Shown: piece after piece, positions 4,843 to 48,220 of the stretch
Layout of the letters: each line of letters opens with the position of its first letter
Numbering within the stretch: the first letter of the stretch is position 1
Assembly (NCBI GenBank): GCA_963555825.3
Contig: CAUVXB020000001.1
Span: 1,664,001 to 1,728,000 of the forward strand
Length of the DNA stretch: 64,000 bases
Direction: 5' to 3'
Source: Alphaproteobacteria bacterium
GTDB taxonomy: Bacteria; Pseudomonadota; Alphaproteobacteria; JAAXGF01
Notes under the pieces: generated by a model
Seen by the model: only the letters and a program-made list of their open reading frames with translations
Told to the model about the DNA's origin: nothing
Database searches by the model: none
Translations under genes and position numbers: made by a program

Positions 4843-7800
4843 TTGATCGCGCGTGACTCACCCTGGGATAGAGCGCGCCGTGTATCGGGGTAAGAGATCT
4901 GCTCAACCAACAGCAGCGCCACCGATACGTTCGGACGATGCCATCGGATCGGCTTGGGCAGCGTTTGCCTGAAGGGTGAGTCTCTGGTTTAGGTTGCGCA
5001 TGCGCCGGCGAAGCCGAATACTGGGAGTTTCGGGGTCATCTTGTTTCGAAGTCGTGGCCCCGCCATCGAGCGATTGCTCCGTGTTTTTTCACGCTTTCGT
5101 GAGATGGGGGGCCGCAGGCGCGTATTACAATTGAGGCGCTGCCTATGCTGTGGGGGCTAGGGCGGAGAACAACTCAGTGTCGAGGAGGACACACGGTGCT
5201 GTTGGGGACGGGGTGGATGACCGGCGCCGGTCACCCGCGGCAGCGACCGTACGCGACCAGGGTCACGCGCCGTATTCGGTAGTAGACAATCCGTTCGAGC
5301 CGTTCGACGGTGAGCGGAAATTCGCCTCCGTGTTGTTCGCCGATATCGTCAAGTCGTCCGCCATGGTCTCGGGTCGCGATCCCGAACAGGCGAACGATTT
5401 GCTCATGCCTGTCCTGCAGTTGTTGATCAATTCGGCTCACCAGTTTGGCGGCACTGTCACCCTGGTCCTCGGCGACGGGATCATGGTCGTGTTCGGCGCG
5501 CCAATCGCGCAATAAGACCACGCGATCCGGGCGTGTCTCGCGGCCGACGGGATGCAGAATGCCATCCGCCTGGCCTTCGGTGCGGGGCCGCCGCCGGCGG
5601 GTCCGCCGATCGCGATTCGGGTCGGGCTCAATTCGGGCGAGGTCGTGATACAGACCGTCGAGAACGACCTGTCGGCCGAGTATCGGGTCGCCGGCGAGAC
5701 CATGTACATCGCCGCGCGCATGGAGAAGGCGGCCGGGCCCGGCGTAACGCTGCTATCCGAGGAAACCTTGAAGCTGGCCGCGCGTTGGGTCGAGGCCAGC
5801 CGGGCCGGGCGCTTCGCGTTGACCGCGGGCGCGCGCAGAGTGACCGCCTTCGAGCTCGAACGCGTCACGCGCGACAAGACCGTCTTGCGCCACGCGTTGC
5901 CGCCGCGGATGGACGTCTTCGTCGGCCGGGACGACGACATCGAGTTCATGCACGACGTCCTGCGAAGCGTCGAGAACGGAGACGGCAAGGCGTTGGTCGT
6001 CACGGGCGAGGCCGGCGTCGGCAAGTCTCGGCTGGTTCATGAGTTTCTCCGATCCGGCCGCGCCGACCAACACCACGTAATCGAATGTGCGCTGTTGCCG
6101 GCCGGCCTCGTGCAACCGCTGGAGCCGCTGACCCGCATCGTCGGCAGTCTGATGGCCATCGAGCCGGACGCGACGGCCGCAACGATCTCGGCCAAGGCGT
6201 CGAGGCTTCTGGATTCGCTGGACATCGCCGACGACATTGCCGTGCCGGCCGTCCTCGGTATTTTCGACGTTCCGCACGGTTCGCCGTCGTGGTTGGCTTT
6301 GGATCCACCCGAGCGGCTCGGCGCCATGATCGACACGGCGACCCGGATCATCCTCGCGGCGAGCCGCCTGAGGCCGGTCGTCATCGTATTCGATGACTTT
6401 CATTGGGCCGACTCGGAGACGCGGCTGCTCGCCGAGGAGCTGGCCAGCCGTCTGGCGTCGTCACGGGTCCTGCTGGCCATCACCTCGCGCAGGCCTCACG
6501 GCGAGGACCATATCGATTGGCCGGGCGCGATCGAACACCGGTTGGGCCGTTTGACGGCGCGGCAGAGCGCCGAGCTGTTACAATCCCTGCTCGGCGACGC
6601 CGCCGATCTGGACGATCTGAAGGAGCTGTTGGTCAAGACCACCCAAGGCATTCCCTTCTTCATCGAAGAGTGCGTCCGGACGCTGGTCGAGACCGGAGCG
6701 TTGCGCGGCGCCGAGGGCGCCTATCGCCCGCAGGTTCCGATCGAGAGCCTGCAGATGCCGCTGAGCGTCCACGCCGTGCTGGCGGCGCGCATCGACTCGC
6801 TGCCGCGGGTCGATCGGTCCGTGCTGCTGTCCGCCTCGGTCGTCGGCCAGAATTTCGACGTCGGCCTGCTCCGCGACATCACCGACTTATCGGCCGAGGA
6901 ACTGATCGTTCGGCTCGATCGCTTGCGGGCCGCGGGGTTCGTTCAAAACACCAGTATCCTACCCAACCTCGAGTACAGCTTTGGGCACGCGCTGATCCAC
7001 GACGTCGCGTACCGCACCCTACTGAAGCGCCAACGGCGCGCCCTGCACGGCCGGCTCGTCGGCGCGATCAGGAAGCGCCGCACCGAGCAGCTCTCGGGCA
7101 AGATCGAGCTGCTCGCTTACCACGCGTACCGCGCCGAAGCGTGGCCCCAGGCGGCCGTCTACGGCCGCATGGCCGGCCAGAAGGCACAGTCGAAATCACG
7201 CAATCGGGAAGCGGCCGATTTCTTCGACAAAGCACTTCAGGCGTTGGACCAGCTTCCCCGAACGCGGAAGAACACGGAACGTTCGATCGACACTCGGCTC
7301 GAGCTGGCCCAGTCGCGCTTCCCGCTTGGAAAGAAAGATCAGGTTCATTTCGACCTCGTTGAAGCGGAGAATTTGGCCAAGGGTCTAGGTGACCACACCG
7401 GCTCGCAGAGATCTCATCAAGCAGGACTCTCTATCACTGGATAAATTGCGACCTTCAAGAAGCGGTTCGTACGGCCGAAAGCGCTCTCGATATCGCAGGC
7501 AGGCTCGACGACGTCGAACTCCACGTCTCGACCGCCGTGCGGCTAGGTGCGCTACTGGTGGACGTCGGTGATTATGAGCGGGCCTGCCAATTACTTGAGA
7601 TCGCTATTAGAAAAATTCCTGACGATGCGATTGACAATCGCTTTGGATTGCTTGCTGCCGCATCGGTTGCCTGTCGAGCGACATTGGCGCGGAGTTTAGG
7701 GGAGCTTGGCCGATTCGACGAGGCCATTCAGGTTGGCGACGAAGCCATAAGGATCGCTGATGAAGTCGGACATGCATTCAGTCAATTATATGCTCTTATG

Positions 7801-10089: not shown

Positions 10090-13000
10090 GAGCCTATAGC
10101 TGAATCTTGACGGGGCGGTAAAAAGTTCCTGCCGATGGCGTGCTTGTACAGGTCTTTGCGGTTCGGTGAAGAATATTTGCCTGTCTCCGCGTTGCTGGTG
10201 GATAAAACCTGATATTACCTATCCTTGGCTTCTCCTTGGCTTCGTTTTTTATGGTGCGATTGCCGCGCAGCGTCGGATATTGAGGCCGAGGGCACGCAGA
10301 TTGACCACGTAGCGCATGGCCGGCATGCCGCGAATGCGTAGGTGAGCCAGGTTCATCTGGTACTTTAATCGCGACATGGTCGCTTCTATGCCGGCCCGCC
10401 ATCTGTAGACGTCGCGGAAGGCATCGCTTTGTTCATAAAGCCGGCGCTTTTGGTTGGCAGCCCTGGCCGGGGTATATTGAAAGCGGGAAAATTGGCCGTC
10501 ACGCTTGGCCGCCTGCACGGGACATCGCAGTATATCGGGACATTTTTGGCAGATGGAGAGGTCGAAACGGGCCTGCAGCTTGGCTTTGGCGAGCGAGGCT
10601 GAAACCGGTTCGACGTTATTGGGACAGCGCAAGACCAAGCCTTCTTCGTTGAGAGTGAAATCCTCCAACGTCAACCGTCCCGAGACGGCGCCTTTCGGCG
10701 GTCGTGCGGGCGCCACGAGATTGATGTTCTGTTCGCGCGTCAGAGCCATGTTGTCACTGGAACCGTAATGTGAATCACCCAGCATCACCGCCGGCGTCAG
10801 CGCGCGCTCGCTCAGATCATCCAGCGCATCGGCCAAGCGATGGCCGTCATGCACCGTCATCTTGTGGACCTCCACGTGGGTGATGAGGTCCGGTGTCGCG
10901 GCAACCGCCTCGTTACTGACATCTTCACAATAGGTTTCGACGATCTGCGCCATGTATCCTTGACCCTTGTGCGCGTTGTAGCTCGCGTCCGGGTCGGCCG
11001 GATTGCCGACGGTATCGCACGGCACATCCTTTGGATCTCGAATCGCGGCGCGCGTTGCGTCACGATCGCCACACTCATCATCAACGATCTCGAACTGATC
11101 GCGCAGAACCCTCTCCAGGATCGCAAAACTGAAAAGCTTTGCCGCCGCCGTGTCACGGAATTGCAGCACCAGGGCTAGGAGATACTGACCCGCTTCGCCG
11201 AGGCGCCGTTTTGAAACACTCGGCGCCGTATTCGCGAACGCGCCATTACCCTCGCGATCGACATAGCGGCGGATCACCTCCTTGCTGATCTGCTCGTGCA
11301 GACCGGGATGATATCGCTCAAGCTCACGGGCAAACTTCGAGATGCTCTCAACAACGATACCAAGTCGTGTCAGCGCCCGCATTGCCGAACGAAGGGCCGT
11401 CGAATCCATGCGTTGGTGGCTGGTATCGACAGAGAACCCCTGCACCAGCCGATCCGTCAAACACCGGAACAGCAATTCATCGAGACCTTGTTCGATAAAC
11501 AGACGGCGATAGTTGCGCAGGGTTTTCTCACAGAAATAGCTGTCCGCTTCGCTGCGCACGTCCAAGGCATAGTGCCACGCCATATTGAAGGCCAGGGCCT
11601 CGACGGTCTCTGCATCGCTCAGATCGTGCAGCTGCTGCAAAAGCAAGACCCCGATGACAACGTGTAGATCCTTCGATGGTCGGCCCATGCGTTCATCAAG
11701 GTGACGGCAAAGATCGTCAACCGGAAGTTCGACAAGCAGATGGTTCCGAAAAACCCCGGCCCAGGATTGCTCCATCAGGCGCCGACGTTTGTCCCCGAAA
11801 TCGGACCAGCGATCAAACAATTCCCCGGTCCGTCGGTCGCGTAAAGTAAACATGCACAATTATAACCCAGCCGACTCTCATGAGGAATCGACTTTTTACC
11901 AGCGTCGAATCTTGGTGATGGAGAATGAAGGCGGCGTATCCTGGCGTTGATGAAGACGCCAATTTTCCGAAGAAAGGGATACGCCATGAAAGACGATACA
12001 GTTGTTGCGTTGCGCCAGCCAGAGTCATTTTCCGACGATCCGCTGACGGAGATATTGCGCGCCGGCGCCCGGCAGTTGCTTGGCCAGGCGATTGAAGCGG
12101 AAGTTGCCGCCCATATTGAAGCCCATGCCGATTTGACCGACGCTTCGGGCCGGCGCCGTATTGTCCGTCACGGGCACATGCCGGAACGCGAGGTTCAGAC
12201 CGGGATCGGAGCTGTGACGGTGAAGCGGCCAAGAGTGCGAGACCGAGATCCACAGGCCACGGGCGGGCGCATCCGTTTCACGTCATCGATCCTGCCGCCT
12301 TATCTCAGGCGCGCCAAGTCGGTCGAGGCGCTTCTGCCCTGGCTTTATCTGAAGGGCATCTCCAGCGGCGACTTTTCGGAGGCCCTGGCGGCGCTGCTGG
12401 GACCGGACGCGCCGGGCCTGACGGCCAGCACCATTGGCCGGCTGAAAGCGGTCTGGTGGGACGAATACGAAGCCTGGCAAAAGCGCGACCTTTCGGCTCG
12501 GCGCTACGTCTATTTTTGGGCCGACGGGGTCTACTTCTCGCCTCGCATGGACCATGACAAACAGTGTGTTCTGGTGATCATCGGCGCCGACGCCATGGGC
12601 AACAAGGACATCGTCGGCATGGTCGACGGTTATCGAGAGAGCGCGCAAAGCTGGAAGGAACTGCTGCTTGATCTCAAGCGCCGGGGCTTGGAGACCGGCC
12701 CCGAGTTGGCCGTCGGCGACGGCGCCTTGGGCTTCTGGAAGGCGCTACGCGAGGTTTACGGAGAGACCAGGGTGCAGCGTTGCTGGGTCCACAAGACCGC
12801 CAACGTGCTCAACCAGATGCCCAAATCCCTGCAGGCCAAAGCCAAGGGCCATCTGCACGACATCTGGATGGCCGAGACTAGGGCCGACGCCGAAGCCGCC
12901 TTCGACTTCTTCATCGCAGCCTACGGCGCAAAATACCACAAGGCCGCAGAGCGCCTGGTCAAGGACCGTGAACGCCTGCTGAGCTTCTACGACTTCCCGG

Positions 13001-13273
13001 CCGAGCACTGGAAGCACATCCGCACCACCAACCCCATCGAAAGCACCTTCGCCACGGTGCGCCTGAGGACCGTGAAGACCAAGGGGTGCCTGAGCCGCAA
13101 GACGGCGCTCGCCATGGCCTTCAAACTGATCTTGAGTGCCAGGCGGAAATGGCGGAAGCTGGACGGATCAAATCAACTCGCCGAACTCGTCGAAGGAGTG
13201 CCGTTCAAGGACGGAATCAAGATAACCAAACACGCCGCCTGATAGCTCCGTCACCAACTTTCGGACATAGCTC
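10090..13273 (+). mobile_element. IS256-family element, type A, copy 1; transposase 11986-13242; left TIR split by an IS1182-like element
   Basis: Mutator DDE motifs (WADG, GDGALG, QRCWVHK, RTTNPIES); ends GAGC(C)TATAG.../...CATAGCTC; 9-bp TSD CTACTTAGA. Confidence 0.93.
10109..11906 (-). mobile_element. IS1182/IS5-like element, copy 1; transposase 10249-11859 (536 aa)
   Basis: DUF772-like N-terminus (GRPS...LQQLHDLSD), DDE core, CxxC...C, YRWRAGIEATMSRLK; TIR GACGGGGCGGTAAAAAGT; TSD GAATCTT. Confidence 0.88.
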
Positions 13274-13389: not shown

Positions 13390-13491
13390 GAGCTATAACC
13401 GAATCTTGTGTACGGCGTTGAAATGAAGGCGGCGTATCCTGGTGATTGTTGATGTCACCACTTGAGCTAAGCCAAGGAAGGATACGCCATG
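13390..13491 (+). mobile_element. Orphan left end of IS256 type B (unoccupied GAATCTT site), truncated at its ATG by IS21
   Basis: Identical to 45038-45055 joined to 46864-46947. Confidence 0.9.
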
Positions 13492-13682
13492 TGTCAATGG
13501 CGGAGCAAAAAGGGACCACCTCGGCGGTGTAAGAAGGGACCGCTTGGCGGCTGCGGGCTTGTCCCCGTAGTCCACGGGAGGGCCCCGCGCGCGACGCGGC
13601 GTGCCCTCAACAGGCTGACGCGGCGGCGCGCGCGGGAGGGACCTGTGGGCCCACGGGGTCAAGCGTGGGCTGGGTGGTCGGT

Positions 13683-14447
13683 TCAGTTAGCAGTCGGGGT
13701 TTGACGCCTGCGGCTCTGGTTGAGCCTGTAGCTGTCACCGTTCATCTCGAGGATGTTGACGTGGTGGGTGAGGCGATCGAGGAGCGCGCCGGTGAGGCGC
13801 TCGGAGCCGAACACCTCGGTCCATTCGTCGAAGGGCAGATTGGTGGTGACCAGGGTCGAGCCCCGCTCGTAGCGTTGGCTGAACACCTCGAACAACAGCT
13901 CGGCGCCGGTCTTCGACAGCGGCACGAAGCCGAGTTCGTCGACGATCAGAAGCTTGTAGGTGGCGAGCTTCTTCTGGAACCTCAGCAGCTGCTTGTCATC
14001 GCGGGCCTCGATGAGTTCGTGGACCAGCGCGGCGGCGGTGATGAAGCCGACCGAGAGGCCCTTCTGGCAGGCCGCCAGGCCGAGACCGAGGGCGATGTGG
14101 GTCTTGCCGGTCCCACTGTTGCCGAGCGCGATGAGGTTCTCGCGGCGCTCGATGTACTCGCAGCGGGCCAGCTCCAGGACCAGCGCCTTGTTGAGCGAGG
14201 GGATGACCTTGAAGTCGAAGCTGTCGAGGCTCTTGACCACGGGGAAGCGCGCCGCCTTGATGCGCCGCTCGACCATGCGGCGCTCGCGGTCGATCAGCTC
14301 GAGCTCGGCGAGTCTCAACAGGTAGCGGACGTGATCGACGCCTTCCGAGGCGCACTGCCGGGCGATCTTGTCGTACTCGCGCAGGAAGGTCGGCAGCTTC
14401 AGCGTCTTGAGGTGGTGGGCGAGCAGCACTTGCGGTGTGTCGGTCAT
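13683..14447 (-). CDS. istB: IS21 helper ATPase
   Basis: GNSGTGKT, LLIVDELG, LLDRLTHH; ATGA overlap with istA. Confidence 0.95.
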   Translation of the reverse strand: MTDTPQVLLAHHLKTLKLPTFLREYDKIARQCASEGVDHVRYLLRLAELELIDRERRMVERRIKAARFPVVKSLDSFDFKVIPSLNKALVLELARCEYIERRENLIALGNSGTGKTHIALGLGLAACQKGLSVGFITAAALVHELIEARDDKQLLRFQKKLATYKLLIVDELGFVPLSKTGAELLFEVFSQRYERGSTLVTTNLPFDEWTEVFGSERLTGALLDRLTHHVNILEMNGDSYRLNQSRRRQTPTAN

Positions 14448-17283
14448 GCGCCGAGCCCCGACAGCAGGCTCATGTACGACTTGGCGGACGTCATCGCGAC
14501 CCGGGCGCGCGGCAGATACGGATAGACGTCGAGGTTGAGCCTGGGCGGCCGCCGCTCGATGCGGCACAGTACCAGGTGCTTCACCGCATCAAAGCCGATT
14601 GCGCCGAGCCGCAGGGCGTCGCCGACCGCACCCTCGACCTCCTCGAGCCGGAAGGTCTCCAGTAGACGGAGCACCTGGACGTACTCGCGCTTGCCTGCCT
14701 TGCCCATACGAGCTTCGAGGAGCCGCCGCAGAGTGATGAAGGCCTCGGGCAGGTCCCAGCCCGCCAATGGCGCGGCCTGGTCGAGGGCGCCGATCTTCTG
14801 CTCGATCAAGGGCAGGTAATGCAGCGGGTCGAAGATCAGGTCCTCGCTGTCGTAGGACCGGCGGTGCCGGGCGATCACCTCGGCCCCGCAGCTGATCACC
14901 ACCTCATCGACGTAGCCCCGGATGAGCACCTCACGGTGGCCGTAGGCCACGGGCACGGAATAGTCGTTGCTGCGGTAACGCACCAGCGACAGCGAACTCG
15001 CCCGTCCAGGGCGCTTATCGCAGGCATCATAGGGAGCAGGCGGCAATGGCAAGAGAACTTGACGATCCCGCTCGAGACGCTCGCCGATGGTCTCCTTGTG
15101 GCCCCGCAGCCGCGCCGCCTGGCGCCGGCGGCACTGTTCGGCGAGAGCATCGTTGAGGGCCGCGAAGCTCTCGGCACGCGGGACGGGGACCAGGAAGTTC
15201 CGCCGGATGAAGCCGACCAGTCCCTCGACCTTGCCCTTGTCGTTGCCCTTGCCCGGCCGGCCGAACCTGTCCTCGAACAGATAGTGGGACTGAAGCTCCG
15301 TGAAGACGCGCGTTCGCTGCCGCTTCCCATCGCCCAGGATCCGGGCAACCGCCAGCTTGGTGTTGTCGTACAGGATGGATCGGGGGACGCCGCCGAAGAA
15401 GGCAAACGCCGCGTTGTGGCCATCGCAGAATGCTTCGGTCGTCTCCGCCGGATAGGCCGCAACAAAGCAACCATCACTGTGGGGAAGGTCGAAGGCAAGG
15501 AAGTGGATCTTCCGTAACGCGCCGCCGATCACCGCCATCGCTTCGCCGAAGTCCGCCTGGGCGTGACCGGGGGAATGGGAGAGTGGCACGAACACTGAGG
15601 TGGTCCCAGAAAATCGGACAGGGAGCTAAGGTGTATTCCACCGGATAACGGAGGAATACGAGATGACGAATCGACGCCGGTTTACGGCGGAATTCAAGGC
15701 CCGGGTGGCGCTGGAAGCGCTGCGGGGCGACAAGACGATCCAGCAGATCGCGGCCAAGCACAAGGTGCATCCGAACCAGGTGAGCGCCTGGAAGCGCCAG
15801 GCGGTGGACGGTCTGGGCGAAGTGTTTTCGAACGGCGCCAACCGCGCTTGCCGGGATCATGAATCCGAGGTCCGCGACCTTCACGCCAAGATCGGCGAGC
15901 TGACGGTGGAACGGGATTTTTTAGCCAGAGGGCTCAAGCGATGAGCCGGGGGGAGCGCAAGGCGATGATCACACGCGACGCCCCCGAGCTGAGCTTGAGC
16001 CGTCAATGCCGCCTGCTTTCGATCGGCCGGTCCTCGTTCTATTATGCGCCCAGGGGGGAGAGCCCTTCGAGTCTGGCGCTGATGCGTCGGATCGACGAGT
16101 TGTTCATGAAGTACCCGTTCTACGGCAGCCGCCAGATGGTCCGCCAGTTGCGGCGGGACGGCGTTTGCGTCGGCCGTCACCGGGTTCGCAGGTTGATGCG
16201 ATTGATAGGCCTGGAGGCGATCTATCAGGCGCCGAGAACCAGCGTGCCGCATCCCATGCACCGGATTTATCCTTATCTTCTCAAAGGGATGGCTATCGAC
16301 CAGCCCAATCGGGTCTGGTGCGCCGACATCACCTATATCCCCGTCCAGCGTGGCTTTCTGTACCTGGTAGCGATCATGGACTGGGCGACGCGCCACGTTT
16401 TATCCTGGCGGCTGTCGAACACCATGGACGCTGGATTCTGCGCCGAGGCCTTGGGCGACGCGCTGGCCCGCTACGGCCAGCCGGAGATATTCAATACGGA
16501 TCAGGGCAGCCAGTTCACCAGCCTCGACTTCACCGGCGTGCTCAAGAACGCGAGCATCCGCATCTCCATGGACGGTCGGGGCCGCTGCATGGACAACATC
16601 TTCATCGAGCGCCTGTGGCGGTCTCTCAAGTATGAGGCGGTCTACCTACACGAGCTCACCGACGGCTTCCACGCCGAACGGGTCATCGGCGAGTGGATCG
16701 GCTTCTACAACACCGAGCGGCCCCATTCGTCCCTCGACGGTCAAACGCCGGCCGAGGCCTACGGGGCCGGTCAACCTGTGGATATGATGGACAAGGCTCG
16801 CGCCTTGCCCACATCCCCACAGGCTCAACAACAGCAACAGGATGTGATAAAAAGGATTTTGGCAGCATGATCAAACAACGGAATACACCTTAACCGCGCT
16901 GCCAAACTGTCCAACAAAGTGGGACCACCTCACACCTCACGCGACCGAAGCCCCTGCTCACGAACGTAGTCCTTCACGATGGTGTAGCCGCCCGTGAAAC
17001 CGTACTCGTCCCGGAGGCGGTCGAAGATGCGCTTCGCAGTGTGCCGTTGCTTGCGGTGGCTGGTCCGATCGTCTTCCAAGATCCGATCGATGATTCCCGT
17101 GAACGGACCCAGCTTTGGCCGCCTCGGCGGCGCGCTTCGGCGATACCCTGGCGGCACCGAGAACGACAGCATCTTACGGACCGTCTTGCGGTCTACACCA
17201 AACACCCGCGAGGCCTCGCGGGTGCTCATCCCCTCGACATGACACGCCCGCCGAACCCGTGCGTACAACTCCACCCGATACAT
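14444..17283 (-). pseudogene. istA: IS21 transposase split by IS3 (5' part 16933-17283, 3' part 14444-15595)
   Basis: MYRVELYARVRRAC...; AQADFG, LYDN, KGKVE motifs. Confidence 0.92.
15596..16932 (+). mobile_element. IS3-family element, intact copy (orfA 15663-15944, orfB 15941-16870)
   Basis: TIR TGAGGTGGTCCC; 3-bp TSD CAC; WCADITY, TDQGSQF, IERLWRSLKYE; T6 run before the ATGA overlap. Confidence 0.95.
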
Positions 17284-22142: not shown

Positions 22143-25100
22143 GAGCTATAGCTGAATCTTGACGGGGCGGTAAAAAGTTGTTGGCCGATGGCGTGCTTGT
22201 ACAGGTCTTTGCGGTTCGGTGAAGAATATTTGCCTGTCTCCGCGTTGCTGGTGGATAAAACCTGATATTACCTACCCTTGGCTTCTCCTTGGCTTCGTTT
22301 TTTATGGTGCGATTGCCGCGCAGCGTCGGATATTGAGGCCGAGGGCACGCAGATTGACCACGTAGCGCATGGCCGGCATGCCGCGAATGCGTAGGTGAGC
22401 CAGGTTCATCTGGTACTTTAATCGCGACATGGTCGCTTCTATGCCGGCCCGCCATCTGTAGACGTCGCGGAAGGCATCGCTTTGTTCATAAAGCCGGCGC
22501 TTTTGGTTGGCAGCCCTGGCCGGGGTATATTGAAAGCGGGAAAATTGGCCGTCACGCTTGGCCGCCTGCACGGGACATCGCAGTATATCGGGACATTTTT
22601 GGCAGATGGAGAGGTCGAAACGGGCCTGCAGCTTGGCTTTGGCGAGCGAGGCTGAAACCGGTTCGACGTTATTGGGACAGCGCAAGACCAAGCCTTCTTC
22701 GTTGAGAGTGAAATCCTCCAACGTCAACCGTCCCGAGACGGCGCCTTTCGGCGGTCGTGCGGGCGCCACGAGATTGATGTTCTGTTCGCGCGTCAGAGCC
22801 ATGTTGTCACTGGAACCGTAATGTGAATCACCCAGCATCACCGCCGGCGTCAGCGCGCGCTCGCTCAGATCATCCAGCGCATCGGCTAAGCGATGGCCGT
22901 CATGCACCGTCATCTTGTGGACCTCCACGTGGGTGATGAGGTCCGGTGTCGCGGCAACCGCCTCGTTACTGACATCTTCACAATAGGTTTCGACGATCTG
23001 CGCCATGTATCCTTGACCCTTGTGCGCGTTGTAGCTCGCGTCCGGGTCGGCCGGATTGCCGACGGTATCGCACGGCACATCCTTTGGATCTCGAATCGCG
23101 GCGCGCGTTGCGTCACGATCGCCATACTCATCATCAACGATCTCGAACTGATCGCGCAGAACCCTCTCCAGGATCGCAAAACTGAAAAGCTTTGCCGCCG
23201 CCGTGTCACGGAATTGCAGCACCAGGGCTAGGAGATACTGACCCGCTTCGCCGAGGCGCCGTTTTGAAACACTCGGCGCCGTATTCGCGAACGCGCCATT
23301 ACCCTCGCGATCGACATAGCGGCGGATCACCTCCTTGCTGATCTGCTCGTGCAGACCGGGATGATATCGCTCAAGCTCACGGGCAAACTTCGAGATGCTC
23401 TCAACAACGATACCAAGTCGTGTCAGCGCCCGCATTGCCGAACGAAGGGCCGTCGAATCCATGCGTTGGTGGCTGGTATCGACAGAGAACCCCTGCACCA
23501 GCCGATCCGTCAAACACCGGAACAGCAATTCATCGAGACCTTGTTCGATAAACAGACGGCGATAGTTGCGCAGGGTTTTCTCACAGAAATAGCTGTCCGC
23601 TTCGCTGCGCACGTCCAAGGCATAGTGCCACGCCATATTGAAGGCCAGGGCCTCGACGGTCTCTGCATCGCTCAGATCGTGCAGCTGCTGCAAAAGCAAG
23701 ACCCCGATGACAACGTGTAGATCCTTCGATGGTCGGCCCATGCGTTCATCAAGGTGACGGCAAAGATCGTCAACCGGAAGTTCGACAAGCAGATGGTTCC
23801 GAAAAACCCCGGCCCAGGATTGCTCCATCAGGCGCCGACGTTTGTCCCCGAAATCGGACCAGCGATCAAACAATTCCCCAGTCCGTCGGTCGCGTAAAGT
23901 AAACATGCACAATTATAATCCAGCCGACTCTCATGAGGAATCGACTTTTTACCGCCCCGTCGAATCTTGGTGATGGAGAATGAAGGCGGCGTATCCTGGC
24001 GTTGATGAAGACGCCAATTTTCCGAAGAAAGGGATACGCCATGAAAGACGATACAGTTGTTGCGTTGCGCCAGCCAGAGTCATTTTCCGACGATCCGCTG
24101 ACGGAGATATTGCGCGCCGGCGCCCGGCAGTTGCTTGGCCAGGCGATTGAAGCGGAAGTTGCCGCCCATATTGAAGCCCATGCCGATTTGACCGACGCTT
24201 CGGGCCGGCGCCGTATTGTCCGTCACGGGCACATGCCGGAACGCGAGGTTCAGACCGGGATCGGAGCTGTGACGGTGAAGCGGCCAAGAGTGCGAGACCG
24301 AGATCCACAGGCCACGGGCGGGCGCATCCGTTTCACGTCATCGATCCTGCCGCCTTATCTCAGGCGCGCCAAGTCGGTCGAGGCGCTTCTGCCCTGGCTT
24401 TATCTGAAGGGCATCTCCAGCGGCGACTTTTCGGAGGCCCTGGCGGCGCTGCTGGGACCGGACGCGCCGGGCCTGACGGCCAGCACCATTGGCCGGCTGA
24501 AAGCGGTCTGGTGGGACGAATACGAAGCCTGGCAAAAGCGCGACCTTTCGGCTCGGCGCTACGTCTATTTTTGGGCCGACGGGGTCTACTTCTCGCCTCG
24601 CATGGACCATGACAAACAGTGTGTTCTGGTGATCATCGGCGCCGACGCCATGGGCAACAAGGACATCGTCGGCATGGTCGACGGTTATCGAGAGAGCGCG
24701 CAAAGCTGGAAGGAACTGCTGCTTGATCTCAAGCGCCGGGGCTTGGAGACCGGCCCCGAGTTGGCCGTCGGCGACGGCGCCTTGGGCTTCTGGAAGGCGC
24801 TACGCGAGGTTTACGGAGAGACCAGGGTGCAGCGTTGCTGGGTCCACAAGACCGCCAACGTGCTCAACCAGATGCCCAAATCCCTGCAGGCCAAAGCCAA
24901 GGGCCATCTGCACGACATCTGGATGGCCGAGACTAGGGCCGACGCCGAAGCCGCCTTCGACTTCTTCATCGCAGCCTACGGCGCAAAATACCACAAGGCC
25001 GCAGAGCGCCTGGTCAAGGACCGTGAACGCCTGCTGAGCTTCTACGACTTCCCGGCCGAGCACTGGAAGCACATCCGCACCACCAACCCCATCGAAAGCA

Positions 25101-25328
25101 CCTTCGCCACGGTGCGCCTGAGGACCGTGAAGACCAAGGGGTGCCTGAGCCGCAAGACGGCGCTCGCCATGGCCTTCAAACTGATCTTGAGTGCCAGGCG
25201 GAAATGGCGGAAGCTGGACGGATCAAATCAACTCGCCGAACTCGTCGAAGGAGTGCCGTTCAAGGACGGAATCAAGATAACCAAACACGCCGCCTGATAG
25301 CTCCGTCACCAACTTTCGGACATAGCTC
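22143..25328 (+). mobile_element. IS256 type A, copy 2; transposase 24041-25297; left TIR split by the IS1182-like element
   Basis: 9-bp TSD TGCACCTTG; transposase identical to copy 1. Confidence 0.94.
22161..23961 (-). mobile_element. IS1182-like element, copy 2; transposase 22302-23912
   Basis: 1801 bp; perfect TIR GACGGGGCGGTAAAAAGT; TSD GAATCTT. Confidence 0.9.
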
Positions 25329-39713: not shown

Positions 39714-42700
39714 TTATTTGATCGTTTTCTCGATGAACCCGAGTGTATTGGCGTTCTCGATCAAGGTTCGTACTTTCGCGCGATCCAGACCGGATGGAAC
39801 TTCGGCGTCGATCTCGAGTTTTAGGGTAACCTCGCTGCCGGGAAGGGTCGTGAGTTGCTCGACAACGGCCTCGACGATTTGATGGATATCCCGCGCCGGC
39901 CGGTCCGACGAAACCATGACAGTGCCAATGAACCGGGTCGGTTTCGTTTCGGTTTCCCGGCCGTTATCCACCACGCCAACATCATCTTCCGGTGTCTTCG
40001 TGCCACCCGAAGAAGGCGAACCGTCGTTTAGGTCTCCAGAGAGACCCGCGGCGGCGGGCGGTGCGCTTCGGCGATATCCGGTCTCACAATGAGACTTTCG
40101 TTGCCGATGACCACCTGGACGTTCGCCGCGTTATCTATAGTAAGACCTTGGTAGGTTCGAGCGGTCTCGTCCCAGCTTTCGGCGTAGGCGAATGGCCCCG
40201 GCAGCATGCCCCCGATGGCCGAGGCGACGGTCCTGACAAGCACCGAGCGGTCCTTCAGCCGCGGCAGGTAGGTATAGCGGTCGAGATATTCCCTGAGATC
40301 CTGCAGGGACAGATGGTCCTTACCGTTCCATATGTACCTCTGGAGTTCTCGATCCAGTCTCGCCGGACCGAGGTCGGGCAGAAGGCCTTCCTCGTCGACG
40401 AGCCTTTTGCTCGCTCGTCCAAGAAGGCCGTCGCGGGCTGGCACCTTACCCGATGTCCACGCAACATCCGCCTCCGCGCCTTCTTGCGTCGGATATAGAA
40501 GGTAGCACCAAGCCTCTTTGAGGCGCGTTCGCACGGTCTCGTTCGCCTCAGCTAGCTTTGCCTTCGCAAGCGCGCTATCGCTTTGGGTCAGGTTGAGACG
40601 TTCCGTTTCGCGAACGATCCCGTCCCAGGCCAAGACCCCGCGCATGGCCTCCTTGAGGTTGTCGAGTTGCCGCGTCTCGGCGGCGAGAAACACCAGCACA
40701 TTGCGATAGACGCGCGGCGTGCCTCCCCGTTGCATCAAAATATCTTTGGCCACCGTCATCGCCTCGGACCCGTCGCGGCCGTTATGGGAATGCGCGATAC
40801 CGAGCACGATGGCGCGCACTCCGCCCGCTTCATCCGGCACGTCTGCAGAGCTTCCAGGCGCCACCTGCACGGCGTCGAAGCGGCCGCGGTCACCGAGCCC
40901 GTTGATATAGGCCGCCAACAACTTGTCGATCTCCACCAGAACAAGCGCTTCCTCGACCTGTTCGGCCCGGTCGGCAGCGACACGGTTGAGGCTCGCCGAC
41001 ATGGAGTACCAATAGCGGCCGAGATCGCCGTGCATGAACCTGGCCCGGTTGCCGAGCCGCCTCAGCGCGTCGCCGAAGACCGCCGGCTTCTCGCCCGGCT
41101 GCACGACGCCCAGATTGATCTGCTTGTCGTCGAGGCCTCTATTCTCTTGCTGGTGCGTCGGGGCCGTGCCCATGAAGATGGCGCGGGCAACCCGCCGGGT
41201 CGCGGAGTATCGGTTCAGATTGGGGGCCGACTGATCGATTTTGTAGGGGATCGACTCCGGGCCGTCGACATCGCCAGCGATGATCGATTGCCAACTCACC
41301 TCGAGATAGTGAAGCAACTCCGATTCTACGCGCGCCGAACCGACCGCTACGCTCCCCGGCATGATCATCACCGAGGGATCGTTGTTCATCCACAGTTCGT
41401 GAATGGCTTGGGCCATCAGCCGCAGCACGCCGCGCGTGCGTTGAAATCGCTCCAGTGAGCCCCAGCCCGTATAGAGCTGATCGAAGAGTTCCGGATGGAT
41501 GGGGTAAGCTTTCTCAAGTTTGCGCCGGTAATCTTCATCGGCCGAGCCGCGAGGAAACTCGTTTGCGTTTTCTCGATAGAGCTTGGCGAACTGCTTCAGC
41601 GTGTTGTCCCGGTGGTGAAACTTGTCGCCGGGAATGTCCTTGAACAGCCGCCGGCGGACGATTTCGTAGCTCTCTTCCTGCGATGCCGGCCGCCAGGACG
41701 ACTCGACCCGGGAGAAGGTCTGCTTGAGCCTGACCAGCGCTTCCTGTCCGCCGTCTCCGCCGACCTCGATCTGCGAAGCCGGAAGCGCCGCCACAAGTAG
41801 CGTTCCGGGACTGGTCTTGACCGCCTCCGTCAAGGACTGAACGAAGCTCAAGTTGGCGTCGAAGGAGCCGGACGGCAGGCCATCGACCTTGTATATCTGG
41901 CGTAGATAGGCCACCCACTCGTCGATCAGGATCAGGCACGGCGAGCATTTCCTGAAAATTTCCTCCAGGAGGTTCGACCCAGGCGCGATACCCTTGGCGT
42001 CGTTCTCGGCGATCATGTCGAAGGCGTCCGCGCCGCCCAGTTGCCAGGCCATCTCGCCCCAGGTCGTGCGAAATTCGCGGCCGCCTTCCTGGGCGTTGAC
42101 GTCCTGCGGGCCGCGCCATGTGCCGACCACAACCGCGCGGTTGATATGTTGCGGTACCGCCGCGCCGTGCTCCGACAGAAGCTGGTCGAGGCCGGGCAAA
42201 TCCCGCGCCGGCGTTCCGCCGGCCATATGATAAAGCGCCAGCATGGAGTGGGTCTTGCCGCCGCCAAAATTGGTCTGAAGCTCGACCACCGGATCGCCGC
42301 CCGCGTCGGAGAGTCTCTTGGCGGCGCCGACCAGAAGCGCGCCGAGGCCGTCGGTGAGGTAGGTGCGGCCAAAGAACTCCCGCGGATCGCCGTATTCCGA
42401 AGGCGCGCTGCCGGCATGGACCTTGCCGAGATCGGCGGCGAACTCCGCCTGCAGGAACTCGCCGGTCGCAACGTCCTGGTGTGGCTCGACGACCTCGCGC
42501 CACGGCAGCAACCCTCCAGCCGCATCGACAGAAATCTCTGAGCGGCTGGTCTTGCGGCGCTCCTCGTTGCGCTGAAGCTCGGTGAACTTGGTGCGCAGGA
42601 TCGTGTCACGCATCTTGCCGAGTTGTTCGGCGGGTGCGCCGGCGCCGATCGCTTGCATCAGGCGCCGCATGGAATCCAACGCGCGTTCGGCATCGTCATA

Positions 42701-43009
42701 GGTAAACGTCTCGTTATGCGAGAGCTTGTTACGGATATCGACCAGTTCGTTCACGATCGAGCGTTCGGCGCGCCCCAGCACGGCCTTGAAGGCGTCCGTC
42801 CAGAACCGGTCCATCGCGTTGAGCAGTGCGGCCTGATCCCAAGCAATATTTCCGTTGGAATCGGGCTTCAGACCGTTCACCCGCTCAGCCGTCGCGACCT
42901 GCCAGTGTCCGGTCAGCGCGCTTTCCAGGCGTTTTTCGACAAAGGGAATCAGCGCGTCGGGCAGGATCTCCATGCCCTCGAAAACATGTTGGCGCGTGCT
43001 CTTGGCCAT
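39714..43009 (-). pseudogene. DUF499 AAA+ ATPase with Swt1-like HEPN N-terminus; frameshifted near 40030
   Basis: RNKLSH HEPN-like motif; PWREVVEPHQDV...EFAADL; QTNFGGGKTH; LIDE; C-terminal domain in a separate frame at 39714-39974. Confidence 0.85.
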
Positions 43010-45037: not shown

Positions 45038-48000
45038 GAGCTATAACCGAATCTTGACGGGGCGGTAAAAAGTTGTTGGCCGATGGCGTGCTTGTACAGG
45101 TCTTTGCGGTTCGGTGAAGAATATTTGCCTGTCTCCGCGTTGCTGGTGGATAAAACCTGATATTACCTACCCTTGGCTTCTCCTTGGCTTCGTTTTTTAT
45201 GGTGCGATTGCCGCGCAGCGTCGGATATTGAGGCCGAGGGCACGCAGATTGACCACGTAGCGCATGGCCGGCATGCCGCGAATGCGTAGGTGAGCCAGGT
45301 TCATCTGGTACTTTAATCGCGACATGGTCGCTTCTATGCCGGCCCGCCATCTGTAGACGTTGCGGAAGGCATCGCTTTGTTCATAAAGCCGGCGCTTTTG
45401 GTTGGCAGCCCTGGCCGGGGTATATTGAAAGCGGGAAAATTGGCCGTCACGCTTGGCCGCCTGCACGGGACATCGCAGTATATCGGGACATTTTTGGCAG
45501 ATGGAGAGGTCGAAACGGGCCTGCAGCTTGGCTTTGGCGAGCGAGGCTGAAACCGGTTCGACGTTATTGGGACAGCGCAAGACCAAGCCTTCTTCGTTGA
45601 GAGTGAAATCCTCCAACGTCAACCGTCCCGAGACGGCGCCTTTCGGCGGTCGTGCGGGCGCCACGAGATTGATGTTCTGTTCGCGCGTCAGAGCCATGTT
45701 GTCACTGGAACCGTAATGTGAATCACCCAGCATCACCGCCGGCGTCAGCGCGCGCTCGCTCAGATCATCCAGCGCATCGGCTAAGCGATGGCCGTCATGC
45801 ACCGTCATCTTGTGGACCTCCACGTGGGTGATGAGGTCCGGTGTCGCGGCAACCGCCTCGTTACTGACATCTTCACAATAGGTTTCGACGATCTGCGCCA
45901 TGTATCCTTGACCCTTGTGCGCGTTGTAGCTCGCGTCCGGGTCGGCCGGATTGCCGACGGTATCGCACGGCACATCCTTTGGATCTCGAATCGCGGCGCG
46001 CGTTGCGTCACGATCGCCATACTCATCATCAACGATCTCGAACTGATCGCGCAGAACCCTCTCCAGGATCGCAAAACTGGAAAGCTTTGCCGCCGCCGTG
46101 TCACGGAATTGCAGCACCAGGGCTAGGAGATACTGACCCGCTTCGCCGAGGCGCCGTTTTGAAACACTCGGCGCCGTATTCGCGAACGCGCCATTACCCT
46201 CGCGATCGACATAGCGGCGGATCACCTCCTTGCTGATCTGCTCGTGCAGACCGGGATGATATCGCTCAAGCTCACGGGCAAACTTCGAGATGCTCTCAAC
46301 AACGATACCAAGTCGTGTCAGCGCCCGCATTGCCGAACGAAGGGCCGTCGAATCCATGCGTTGGTGGCTGGTATCGACAGAGAACCCCTGCACCAGCCGA
46401 TCCGTCAAACACCGGAACAGCAATTCATCGAGACCTTGTTCGATAAACAGACGGCGATAGTTGCGCAGGGTTTTCTCACAGAAATAGCTGTCCGCTTCGC
46501 TGCGCACGTCCAAGGCATAGTGCCACGCCATATTGAAGGCCAGGGCCTCGACGGTCTCTGCATCGCTCAGATCGTGCAGCTGCTGCAAAAGCAAGACCCC
46601 GATGACAACGTGTAGATCCTTCGATGGTCGGCCCATGCGTTCATCAAGGTGACGGCAAAGATCGTCAACCGGAAGTTCGACAAGCAGATGGTTCCGAAAA
46701 ACCCCGGCCCAGGATTGCTCCATCAGGCGCCGACGTTTGTCCCCGAAATCGGACCAGCGATCAAACAATTCCCCAGTCCGTCGGTCGCGTAAAGTAAACA
46801 TGCACAATTATAATCCAGCCGACTCTCATGAGGAATCGACTTTTTACCGCCCCGTCGAATCTTGTGTACGGCGTTGAAATGAAGGCGGCGTATCCTGGTG
46901 ATTGTTGATGTCACCACTTGAGCTAAGCCAAGGAAGGATACGCCATGAAAGAGAATACCGTTGTTGCTTTTCAAAACCCATCTGATTTTCAGAAAGATCC
47001 GTTGACGGAAGTCCTACAAGCTGGAGCTCGCGAGTTGTTGGCCCAAGCCGTTGAGGCCGAGGTCTCCGTGTTTTTGGGTAGCCATGCGGCGCTTGTTGAC
47101 GCCGCCGGCCGCCGCCGGGTTGTCCGCAATGGATATCTGCCGGAACGCTTCATCCAGACCGGGATCGGCCCGGTGAGCGTGCGCCAACCCCGTGTGCGGG
47201 ACCGGGGGGACGGCGCCATCCGCTTCACGTCGGCGATCCTGCCGCGCTATCTGCGCCGCGCCAAGAGCCTGGAAGACCTTTTGCCATGGCTGTATCTGAA
47301 GGGCATTTCCACCGGCGACTTCGGGGAAGCCTTGGCGGCGCTCCTGGGGAGCTCCGCGCCGGGGCTTTCGGCCTCCACGATCACCCGGCTGAAAGAGGTC
47401 TGGGGGGTTGAGGCGGAGCGCTGGCAACGGCGCGACCTCACGGCCAAGCGCTACGTCTATTTCTGGGTGGACGGCATCTATTTCAGCGCCCGCATGGAGG
47501 AAGAGAAGCAGTGCATCCTGGTGATCGTCGGGGCCACGGACAAGGGACAGAAGGAACTGATCGCCATCGCCGACGGCTATCGCGAAAGTGAGCAGTCCTG
47601 GCTCGAAGTTCTGCTCGATCTCAAGCGGCGCGGCCTTGAAATGGGTCCGCAACTGGCGCTCGGCGACGGCGCGCTCGGCTTCTGGAAGGCGCTCCGCCAA
47701 GTCTACCCAGGCGCCCGCGAGCAACGCTGCTGGGTTCACAAGACGGGCAACGTCTTGAACAAGCTGCCCAAGGGTCTGCAAAAGAAAGCCAAGGGGCGCC
47801 TGCAAGACATCTGGATGGCCGAAACCAGGAAGGATGCCGAGAGCGCCTTCGACTTCTTCCTGGAAGCCTACGGGCCGAAGTACGACAAGGCCGCGGCCTG
47901 CCTGGCCAAGGACCGCGACGTCCTGCTGACGTTCTACGACTTCCCCGCCGAGCACTGGAAGCATGTACGCACGACCAACCCCATCGAGAGCACGTTCGCC

Positions 48001-48220
48001 ACGGTTCGTCTGCGCACCTACCGGACCAAGGGCTGCCTGTCGCGCAAGACGGCGATGGCCATGGTCTTCAAACTATGCCAGTGCGCTCAGAGAAAATGGA
48101 GAAAACTCGATGGATCGAACCATCTCGCCGAGATCATTCGCGGCGTCAAATTCGTAGATGGAGAACGCCAGGATCGCGCCGCCGCATGATCAGCCCATAC
48201 ACAACTTTTGACAATAGCTC
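45038..48220 (+). mobile_element. IS256 type B; transposase 46945-48189; left TIR split by the IS1182-like element
   Basis: Ends GAGCTATAACC.../...ACAATAGCTC; no TSD. Confidence 0.92.
45056..46856 (-). mobile_element. IS1182-like element, copy 3; transposase 45197-46807
   Basis: 1801 bp; same TIR; TSD GAATCTT. Confidence 0.9.

Follow-up and report, generated by a model that had tools for sequence, protein, structure and literature searches.

Why should every copy of one insertion sequence (IS) in a stretch of DNA lie at the same base of another insertion sequence? The question arises from 64,000 nucleotides (nt) of an alphaproteobacterial genome (contig CAUVXB020000001.1 of assembly GCA_963555825.3, positions 1,664,001 to 1,728,000; this whole stretch is referred to as the window), in which three copies of an IS1182-like element are each inserted in the left end of an IS256-family element. 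A preliminary description of the window took the IS1182-like element for a site-specific parasite of IS256 left ends, always divergent from the IS256 transposase. The analysis reported here supports that interpretation in part: it was right in substance, in that the element is a site-specific resident of IS256 ends, chosen by sequence, and wrong on the restriction to left ends and on the fixed orientation. Our favored reading, to which we assign a probability of about 0.8, is that this is an autonomous element of the IS5/IS1182 kind whose transposase picks its target by reading DNA sequence, and that IS256 ends are near-ideal sites for it.

The element and its place in IS256 ends

The intact element is 1801 bp long, with perfect 18-bp inverted ends (GACGGGGCGGTAAAAAGT), a 7-bp target duplication, and one open reading frame (ORF) for a DDE transposase of 536 amino acids (aa) that leaves non-coding stretches of just 49 and 141 nt at the two ends. 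Each copy in the window begins GACGGGGCGGTA and is flanked on both sides by GAATCTT, and the layout is the same in all three—an IS256 tip of 11-12 nt outside, and the remaining IS256 element inside. The features of the two IS256 types involved, designated IS256-A and IS256-B, and of their residents are:

10090-10108, + strand: left inverted repeat of IS256-A, its outer 12 nt with one C in excess, and the first GAATCTT duplicate
10109-11906, - strand: IS1182-like copy 1, 1798 bp, left end intact, right inverted repeat damaged
10249-11859, - strand: copy 1 transposase ORF
11907-13273, + strand: remaining IS256-A, with the second GAATCTT; its right end stops at 13273
11947-13242, + strand: IS256-A transposase within the first composite
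13390-13491, + strand: unoccupied IS256-B left end (GAGCTATAACC GAATCTT GTGTACGG), the pre-insertion allele
22143-22160, + strand: IS256-A left tip (11 nt) and GAATCTT
22161-23961, - strand: IS1182-like copy 2, 1801 bp, perfect 18-bp inverted ends
22302-23912, - strand: copy 2 transposase ORF, 536 aa
23962-25328, + strand: remaining IS256-A, with its transposase at 24002-25297
45038-45055, + strand: IS256-B left tip (GAGCTATAACC) and GAATCTT
45056-46856, - strand: IS1182-like copy 3, 1801 bp
45197-46807, - strand: copy 3 transposase ORF
46857-48220, + strand: remaining IS256-B, ORF 46945-48189, right end (GAGCTATTGTC AAAAGTT) unoccupied

The coordinates given for the three copies in the preliminary description are exact, and its duplicated GAATCTT, its 536-aa IS1182-like ORF and its hosts (IS256-A twice, IS256-B once, with transposases verified as IS256) are all confirmed. 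Two details needed correction. Copies 2 and 3 are indeed intact, at 1801 bp, but the first of the three copies of about 1.8 kb is a damaged one of 1798 bp, with a right inverted repeat that reads ..TACCAGCGTC in place of ..TACCGCCCCGTC; and the tip at 10090, reported as GAGCTATAGCT, is in fact GAGCCTATAGCT, with one C more.

IS256-family elements are about 1.3-1.5 kb long, with imperfect inverted ends and duplications of 8-9 bp, and the hosts agree with this in size and in their 9-bp repeats, which flank two of the window composites and not the third. The IS256-A protein matches NCBIfam NF033543 with 310 bits (cut-off 150) and Pfam PF00872 with 199.9 bits (cut-off 21); the protein of IS256-B, a 1375-bp element, was retrieved by tblastn at about 70% identity. 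Direct repeats of 9 bp stand outside the IS256 ends of the composites at 10090-13273 (CTACTTAGA) and 22143-25328 (TGCACCTTG). Unlike these two, the composite at 45038-48220 lacks such a repeat around its IS256-B ends (CTCGGGCAG versus AGGAAGCTG), which suggests rearrangement at this copy. Intact IS256 ends carry the 7-mer in single copy, and the empty IS256-B end at 13390, which had been put forward as the pre-insertion allele, does so too.

IS1182-family elements have a single ORF, inverted ends and a length of roughly 1.3-2.0 kb, and their DDE transposases carry a Y-x2-R-x3-E signature near the C terminus; all of these features are present here. The 536-aa protein has the Pfam domains DUF772 (N-terminal), DDE_Tnp_1 and DDE_Tnp_1_6, all above cut-offs. 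Its best NCBIfam family is IS1182 (NF033551, transpos_IS1182; residues 42-533), with a score of 172.2 bits that lies below the cut-off of 270, and the element is therefore named IS1182-like. Among 56 sequences, D152, D289, D338, D362, R488 and E492 are invariant, as are the cysteines at 412, 437, 440 and 446, and Y485 is nearly so (90% or more).

Occupancy was then determined across the genome of the window, a 6.04-Mb assembly of two contigs (C1 and C2) that is dense in insertion sequences. It contains 27 full-length copies of the element (counted end to end), plus fragments, and 76 element ends were counted from BLAST matches. Of these, 73 lie directly against the terminus of an IS256-A or IS256-B, always at the identical base (left ends, 38 of 39; right ends, 35 of 37), so that residence outside IS256 ends or at variable offsets, named beforehand as the finding that would speak against target specificity, is rare; the duplicated 7 bp are bases 12-18 of the IS256 inverted repeat. 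The exceptions are both ends of one insertion at GAACTATATCC|GATCATC, where the neighbor is an ordinary amidohydrolase-like ORF, and an 89%-identical fragment adjoining a GAGCTATACCC tip. An apparent third host type was set aside as the right end of IS256-B, the two end types being paired 1338 bp apart. Occupancy of the four ends is:

IS256-A left end: 9/15, with a tenth split by about 1.1 kb from a truncated copy
IS256-A right end: 0/16
IS256-B left end: 14/41
IS256-B right end: 10/39

Residence is thus not confined to left ends. Nor is the orientation fixed: the divergent arrangement described as universal is true of the three window copies, but genome-wide the interior junctions are divided between 19 oriented as in the window and 15 opposite (binomial P 0.61), and both orientations are present at the A left, B left and B right ends. 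Four IS256-B elements bear the element in both ends. Nesting is also reciprocal, with IS256-B inserted into the element; copies at C2:2831924-2835100 and C1:863130-866356 are split by about 1.4 kb of DNA, which in the former has IS256-B ends and a 9-bp overlap in element coordinates. None of 12 genomes of the same family searched with this element as query carries it.

A recurrent position could also come about by copying rather than targeting, if a few original insertions had been spread by transposition of composites as units or by gene conversion between IS256 copies. Unit transposition would also give the 9-bp IS256 duplications that are kept around composites, and two features of the copies count against repeated targeting: a G10A variant is present in three copies, all in the B left end and in one orientation, and a C at alignment column 305 is found mostly in copies within the IS256-A left end. 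Given this residual correlation of haplotype with context, a few copies may have spread as a unit with IS256. As an account of the whole pattern, copying has a very slim chance of being right. Six combinations of host end and orientation are found in the genome, and at least six separate events are therefore required. Haplotypes defined by 18 informative sites among the 27 full copies are identical in differing host ends and orientations, and the IS256-A bodies are mutually identical yet house elements of several haplotypes, which argues against composites spreading as units. Moreover, the homology on the tip side is only 18 bp, insertions at this very position recur in many unrelated IS256 species and genomes, and in the genome described below the element has inserted in the absence of IS256. 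The earlier estimate of at least two independent, identically positioned events accordingly stands, by virtue of the six combinations and of haplotypes common to the two host types. In two copies the flanks do not match each other, which points to recombination with other copies. Nucleotide differences that might part occupied from empty IS256-A lineages were also sought, but the bodies are identical and there is nothing to compare.

Target choice with and without IS256

An assembly of about 4.0 Mb labelled Amylibacter (G041) contains 31 full copies of the element at 98-99% DNA identity (loci L033-L053, L066, L097 and L107-L117). It gives zero matches to Pfam PF00872, where three sister assemblies give 41, 9 and 5 and control genomes respond, and zero matches with the IS256-A protein. 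The sites occupied there have a degenerate form of the same motif, GAG-N8-RANNNTY. Counted over 64 distinct element ends, position -6 is A in 57, position -2 is T in 61, position -1 is T or C in 59, position -7 is a purine in 55, position -8 is C in 43 and position -18 is G in 39, with GAG at -18 to -16 in 16 (background 0.97%, P 2e-18). With both flanks of each site included in the count, the core comes out as the palindrome C-RANNNTY-G and the half-sites resemble GAGYTATA. Half-sites scoring at least 5 number 31/62, versus 4.3% by chance; the best half-site reaches this score in 25 of the 31 sites, and the weaker half-site has a mean of 3.13 versus 2.24. Matching 7-bp repeats are kept by 13 of the 31 copies. 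In the remaining 18 the two flanks bear no relation to each other, which implies that copies have often recombined with one another or undergone intramolecular transposition.

A matrix trained on the G041 ends, which is independent of IS256, was scanned over the genome of the window using the near-uniform background of the training genome; a first scan with the GC-rich background of the window genome inflated AT-rich sites and was discarded. Of the positions scoring 22 or more, 54/54 are intact IS256-B ends; at 20 or more, IS256 ends account for 70/77, and at 18 or more for 76/115. That a matrix learned from G041 places IS256 ends at the top is the strongest single argument that DNA sequence is read. 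The lone clear non-IS256 site in the window genome (GAACTATATCC|GATCATC) also fits the motif, and relatives in a Rhizobiaceae-labelled assembly occupy GAG-N8 sites without IS256 sequence. These comparisons support a target read from the DNA, with the IS256 transpososome probably unnecessary. The suggestion in the preliminary description that the enzyme recognizes either the IS256 end sequence or the IS256 transpososome thus survives in its first half, whereas G041 and the matrix show no need for the second.

On the favored reading, the preferred site is an imperfect palindrome of about 29 bp with core C-RANNNTY-G, of which the central 7 bp become the duplication, and with half-sites like GAGYTATAnnC lying 11 bp out on each side. 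Near-ideal matches are offered by inverted-repeat positions 1-29 of one widespread IS256-family group (tips GAG[C/A/T]TAT), the IS256 tip acting as a strong half-site and the IS256 interior as a weaker one. Because these ends are near-ideal, nearly all insertions fall between bases 11 and 19, in either orientation, wherever such an IS256 is present, and weaker look-alike sites are used where it is absent. The two half-sites may be read by a symmetric transposase multimer. Insertion would part the outer 18 bp of the host IS256 from the rest and may so immobilize it, and the habit may persist since IS256 ends would be a harmless, multi-copy landing site. The term parasite is likewise an interpretation, under which insertion would harm IS256 mobility.

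Several observations weigh against sequence reading as a complete account. The IS256-A right end (GAGCTATGTCC GAAAGTT GGTGACGG) is occupied in 0/16 cases, the window ends at 13273 and 25328 among them, and yet its matrix score of 20.6 exceeds the 19.4 of the A left end, which is occupied in 9-10 of 15 (Fisher P 7e-5 using 10/15); in other genomes, 98-99% identical elements do occupy right ends much like that of IS256-A (L059, L051). Outside IS256, 39 positions reach a score of at least 18, and just one such site is occupied. In G041, 6 of the 31 sites lack any half-site scoring at least 5. An additive sequence model therefore does not cover all choices, and the candidates are that recognition is non-additive or that there is another contributor—wider sequence context, IS256 transposase binding, or history.

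In the transposase itself no separate module for target reading was found, which also weighs on the same side. The AlphaFold model is of high predicted local distance difference test score (pLDDT 93.3) and predicted template modelling score (pTM 0.91), and Foldseek against the PDB gives no match at E 0.001 or better, the top one being Tn5 transposase at E 1.3e-3. The structure prediction, which the preliminary description had recommended, thus discloses no extra target-reading domain, and window-by-window comparison with relatives of 28-43% identity shows no clade-specific insertion; the specificity must then lie in substitutions. Comparison of the element with Rfam gives no match, and no GAGCTAT-like motif is found in its non-coding ends (49 and 141 nt), so that a guide RNA is not indicated by the sequence. 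DDE Pfam domains, short non-coding ends and the lack of an Rfam match set the element apart from the RNA-guided IS110/IS1111 type, and an ORF that fills all but 49 + 141 nt leaves no separate target selector of the Tn7/Tn5053 type.

The disuse of the A right end despite its score, and the near-disuse of high-scoring non-IS256 positions (one site against 39 positions), are what would be expected if target choice were guided by the IS256 transposase or its end complex, through protein-protein contact or a bent-DNA cue, and the sequence were a mere proxy. We think this unlikely. The 31 copies in G041, without PF00872, sit at sites bearing the same motif; the matrix trained on them predicts IS256 ends in the window genome; one motif-like site outside IS256 is used in that genome; and the Rhizobiaceae-labelled relatives are also at motif sites free of IS256 sequence.

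The transposase might alternatively recognize a DNA structure, a hairpin or cruciform, as proposed for IS1272 of the IS1182 family. According to PMC5678879, IS1272 targets inverted-repeat structures without a common sequence and makes no duplication in newly inserted copies, and some IS1182-family members, for which Siguier et al. are cited, target palindromes; the site described here is partly palindromic around the 7-bp duplication. The arms in IS256 ends, however, as read by eye, match at only about 4/11 positions, too few for a stem, and in contrast to IS1272 as described there, the element reads conserved sequence (GAG, TAT, C, RA and TY) and always makes a clean duplication of a constant 7 bp. 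Recognition of structure is consequently a decidedly improbable explanation. Finally, insertion might be only weakly specific, with selection purging copies outside harmless IS256 ends. IS256 ends would be neutral landing sites in a genome so dense in insertion sequences, but selection has no means of bringing about 40 sites to a single-base offset, and G041 retains copies at many ordinary chromosomal sites; we give this explanation hardly any weight.

Relatives, derived structures and neighboring features

A scan of one genome per species gave 76 loci, and a metagenome scan gave 80 further loci at 50-90% identity. Transposases 97-99% identical are present in long-read assemblies labelled Amylibacter, Rhodospirillales, Paracoccaceae and unclassified Alphaproteobacteria. 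A junction census, with the window genome and G041 excluded, covered 135 loci and 239 pattern-matched ends with transposases 50-99% identical, and some of the pattern matches are probably false. The ends fall into these classes:

83 ends: tip matching GAGCTAT in at least 6/7 positions at exactly -18 (chance 0.13% per end)
5 ends: perfect tip shifted by 1-2 nt
38 ends: abutting an IS256-type interior
12 ends: abutting another element end
13 ends: tip matching in 5/7
64 ends: other
24 ends: too short for evaluation

At least one strict IS256-type junction is found at 87 of 121 evaluable loci, and many of the remaining 34 have variant tips such as GGAGTATTGTC, or interiors missed by the crude rule. 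Inspection of the flanks of homologues, which the preliminary description had recommended, therefore favors its central claim both here (73/76 ends) and elsewhere (87/121 loci). An IS256-family transposase adjoins the element in 15 of 77 loci checked. The habit reaches assemblies labelled Planctomycetota, Phycisphaeraceae and Solirubrobacterales, and was not seen in two 37%-identical relatives with readable flanks. In a plasmid collection one record has a relative, a Microvirga plasmid (no annotation).

Near-identical (97-99%) transposases across differently labelled orders are found at loci L031-L063, L066-L067, L077, L090 and L097, and most of the sequence words of the window recur in metagenome runs (X1-X20) of sponge, seawater and sediment from 17 studies. 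Together these point to recent horizontal spread.

Some loci have IS256 tips facing inward on both sides of the element and no IS256 body (L062, L065, L068, L074, L082, L088, L098, L101, L123, L137, L139, L149, L168 and L169), and some have the opposite structure, with IS256 interiors on both sides (L064, L120, L125, L190 and L197). An outer 9-bp repeat is recognizable by eye around one of 13 tip-element-tip structures (L088, the Microvirga plasmid, ATGGAGTGG) and around none of the 12 others; with the repeat in just 1/13, simple internal deletion was rejected as the origin of most of them. A more far-reaching proposal is that the whole clade is a dedicated IS256 hyperparasite, which would read the ~29-bp site, cut off the outer 18 bp, so immobilizing the host, and, after hits in both ends, have the IS256 body removed by recombination, leaving tip-element-tip structures, some of which might be moved by the IS256 transposase; we offer this tentatively, and think it doubtful.

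Where two element ends abut each other (left end, 7 bp, right end), 6/6 are head-to-tail (P 0.03; L043:644-4252, L067:1164-4770, L102, L127, L152 and L154). Full tandem dimers are present in two long-read assemblies, and in a contig of public run X6 a right end is joined to a left end across GAAAGTT (window 22159/23964), the evidence from public runs being what assembled contigs bridge. These junctions suggest circular or dimeric intermediates, which would have a spacer equal in length to the duplication.

Several other features of the window stand near the composites or among its insertion sequences:

11925-11990 (also 13425-13491): IS256 leader, with about 35 nt enclosed by GGCGTATCC and its complement GGATACGCC, which ends at the transposase ATG
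13489-16900: ORFs with rve and Mu-transposase C-terminal domains (14444-15595) and an IS3-type rve/HTH_21 ORF (15941-16870)
5552-7444, + strand: 630-aa AAA_16 protein with a weak cyclase match, amid insertion sequences
40028-43009, - strand: 993-aa protein with Swt1-like HEPN and DUF499 domains, amid insertion sequences

The IS256-B copy with the empty left end diverges from the family sequence just after its ATG, and the ORFs within 13489-16900 indicate further nesting there. A hairpin in the IS256 leader is possible and could mask the start codon. The 993-aa and 630-aa proteins may be defense-related.

Comparison with known systems

Most DDE insertion sequences choose their targets loosely, and precise targeting of the end of another mobile element is known mainly for RNA-guided IS110/IS1111 elements. 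Among these, IS4321/IS5075 and IS1383 (IS1111/IS110 families) have as their targets the inverted repeats of Tn21-family transposons or IS1384, and the present element resembles them in being a specialist for a single point within the terminal repeat of a different mobile element. It differs from them in having a DDE transposase, no sign of an RNA, 7-bp duplications and both orientations. IS30, in turn, has a DDE transposase that targets its own ends or a 24-bp consensus. The preference for a long, roughly palindromic consensus is common to both, but IS30 belongs to a different family, and for the present element the ends of another family supply the best natural sites. With the IS1182 family itself (IS1182, IS1272 and relatives) the element shares its best-scoring NCBIfam family, its Pfam domains, the single ORF, the inverted ends and the length of about 1.8 kb. 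IS110/IS1111-type elements use a DEDD recombinase with a guide RNA (seekRNA or bridge RNA), encoded in a long non-coding region, and make no duplication.

For ISPse1 of Paracoccus, PMC3281130 lists a 4-bp repeat, as compared with 7 bp here. An IS1202 subgroup that targets XerCD sites, according to bioRxiv 10.1101/2022.12.17.520857, abuts the xrs site; this too is a subgroup of a DDE family with an acquired, specific and recurrent landing site, though in another family and with another target, and the present element inserts inside its motif instead of abutting it. REP-targeting insertion sequences are described in PMC1525189 as using a repeated, harmless genomic landing site; the target here is the functional end of another transposable element and not a host repeat. 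A full-text literature search turned up no description of IS256 ends as the target of an IS1182-type element, and a note in ISfinder or TnPedia may exist.

The element presents a protein-only DDE transposase in which no extra domain is detected and which inserts at a single base of a site about 29 bp long, a habit found in relatives down to about 50% identity, and it thereby provides a tractable system for how a transposase reads a long target. For annotation it carries a warning, as such genomes will often contain nested IS256/IS1182-like composites. It also shows, in nature, an insertion-sequence family that lives on a second one and possibly disables it. If the clade should prove to be a dedicated hyperparasite of IS256, one insertion-sequence family would be limiting another, and a DDE transposase alone would be recognizing a long, specific site.

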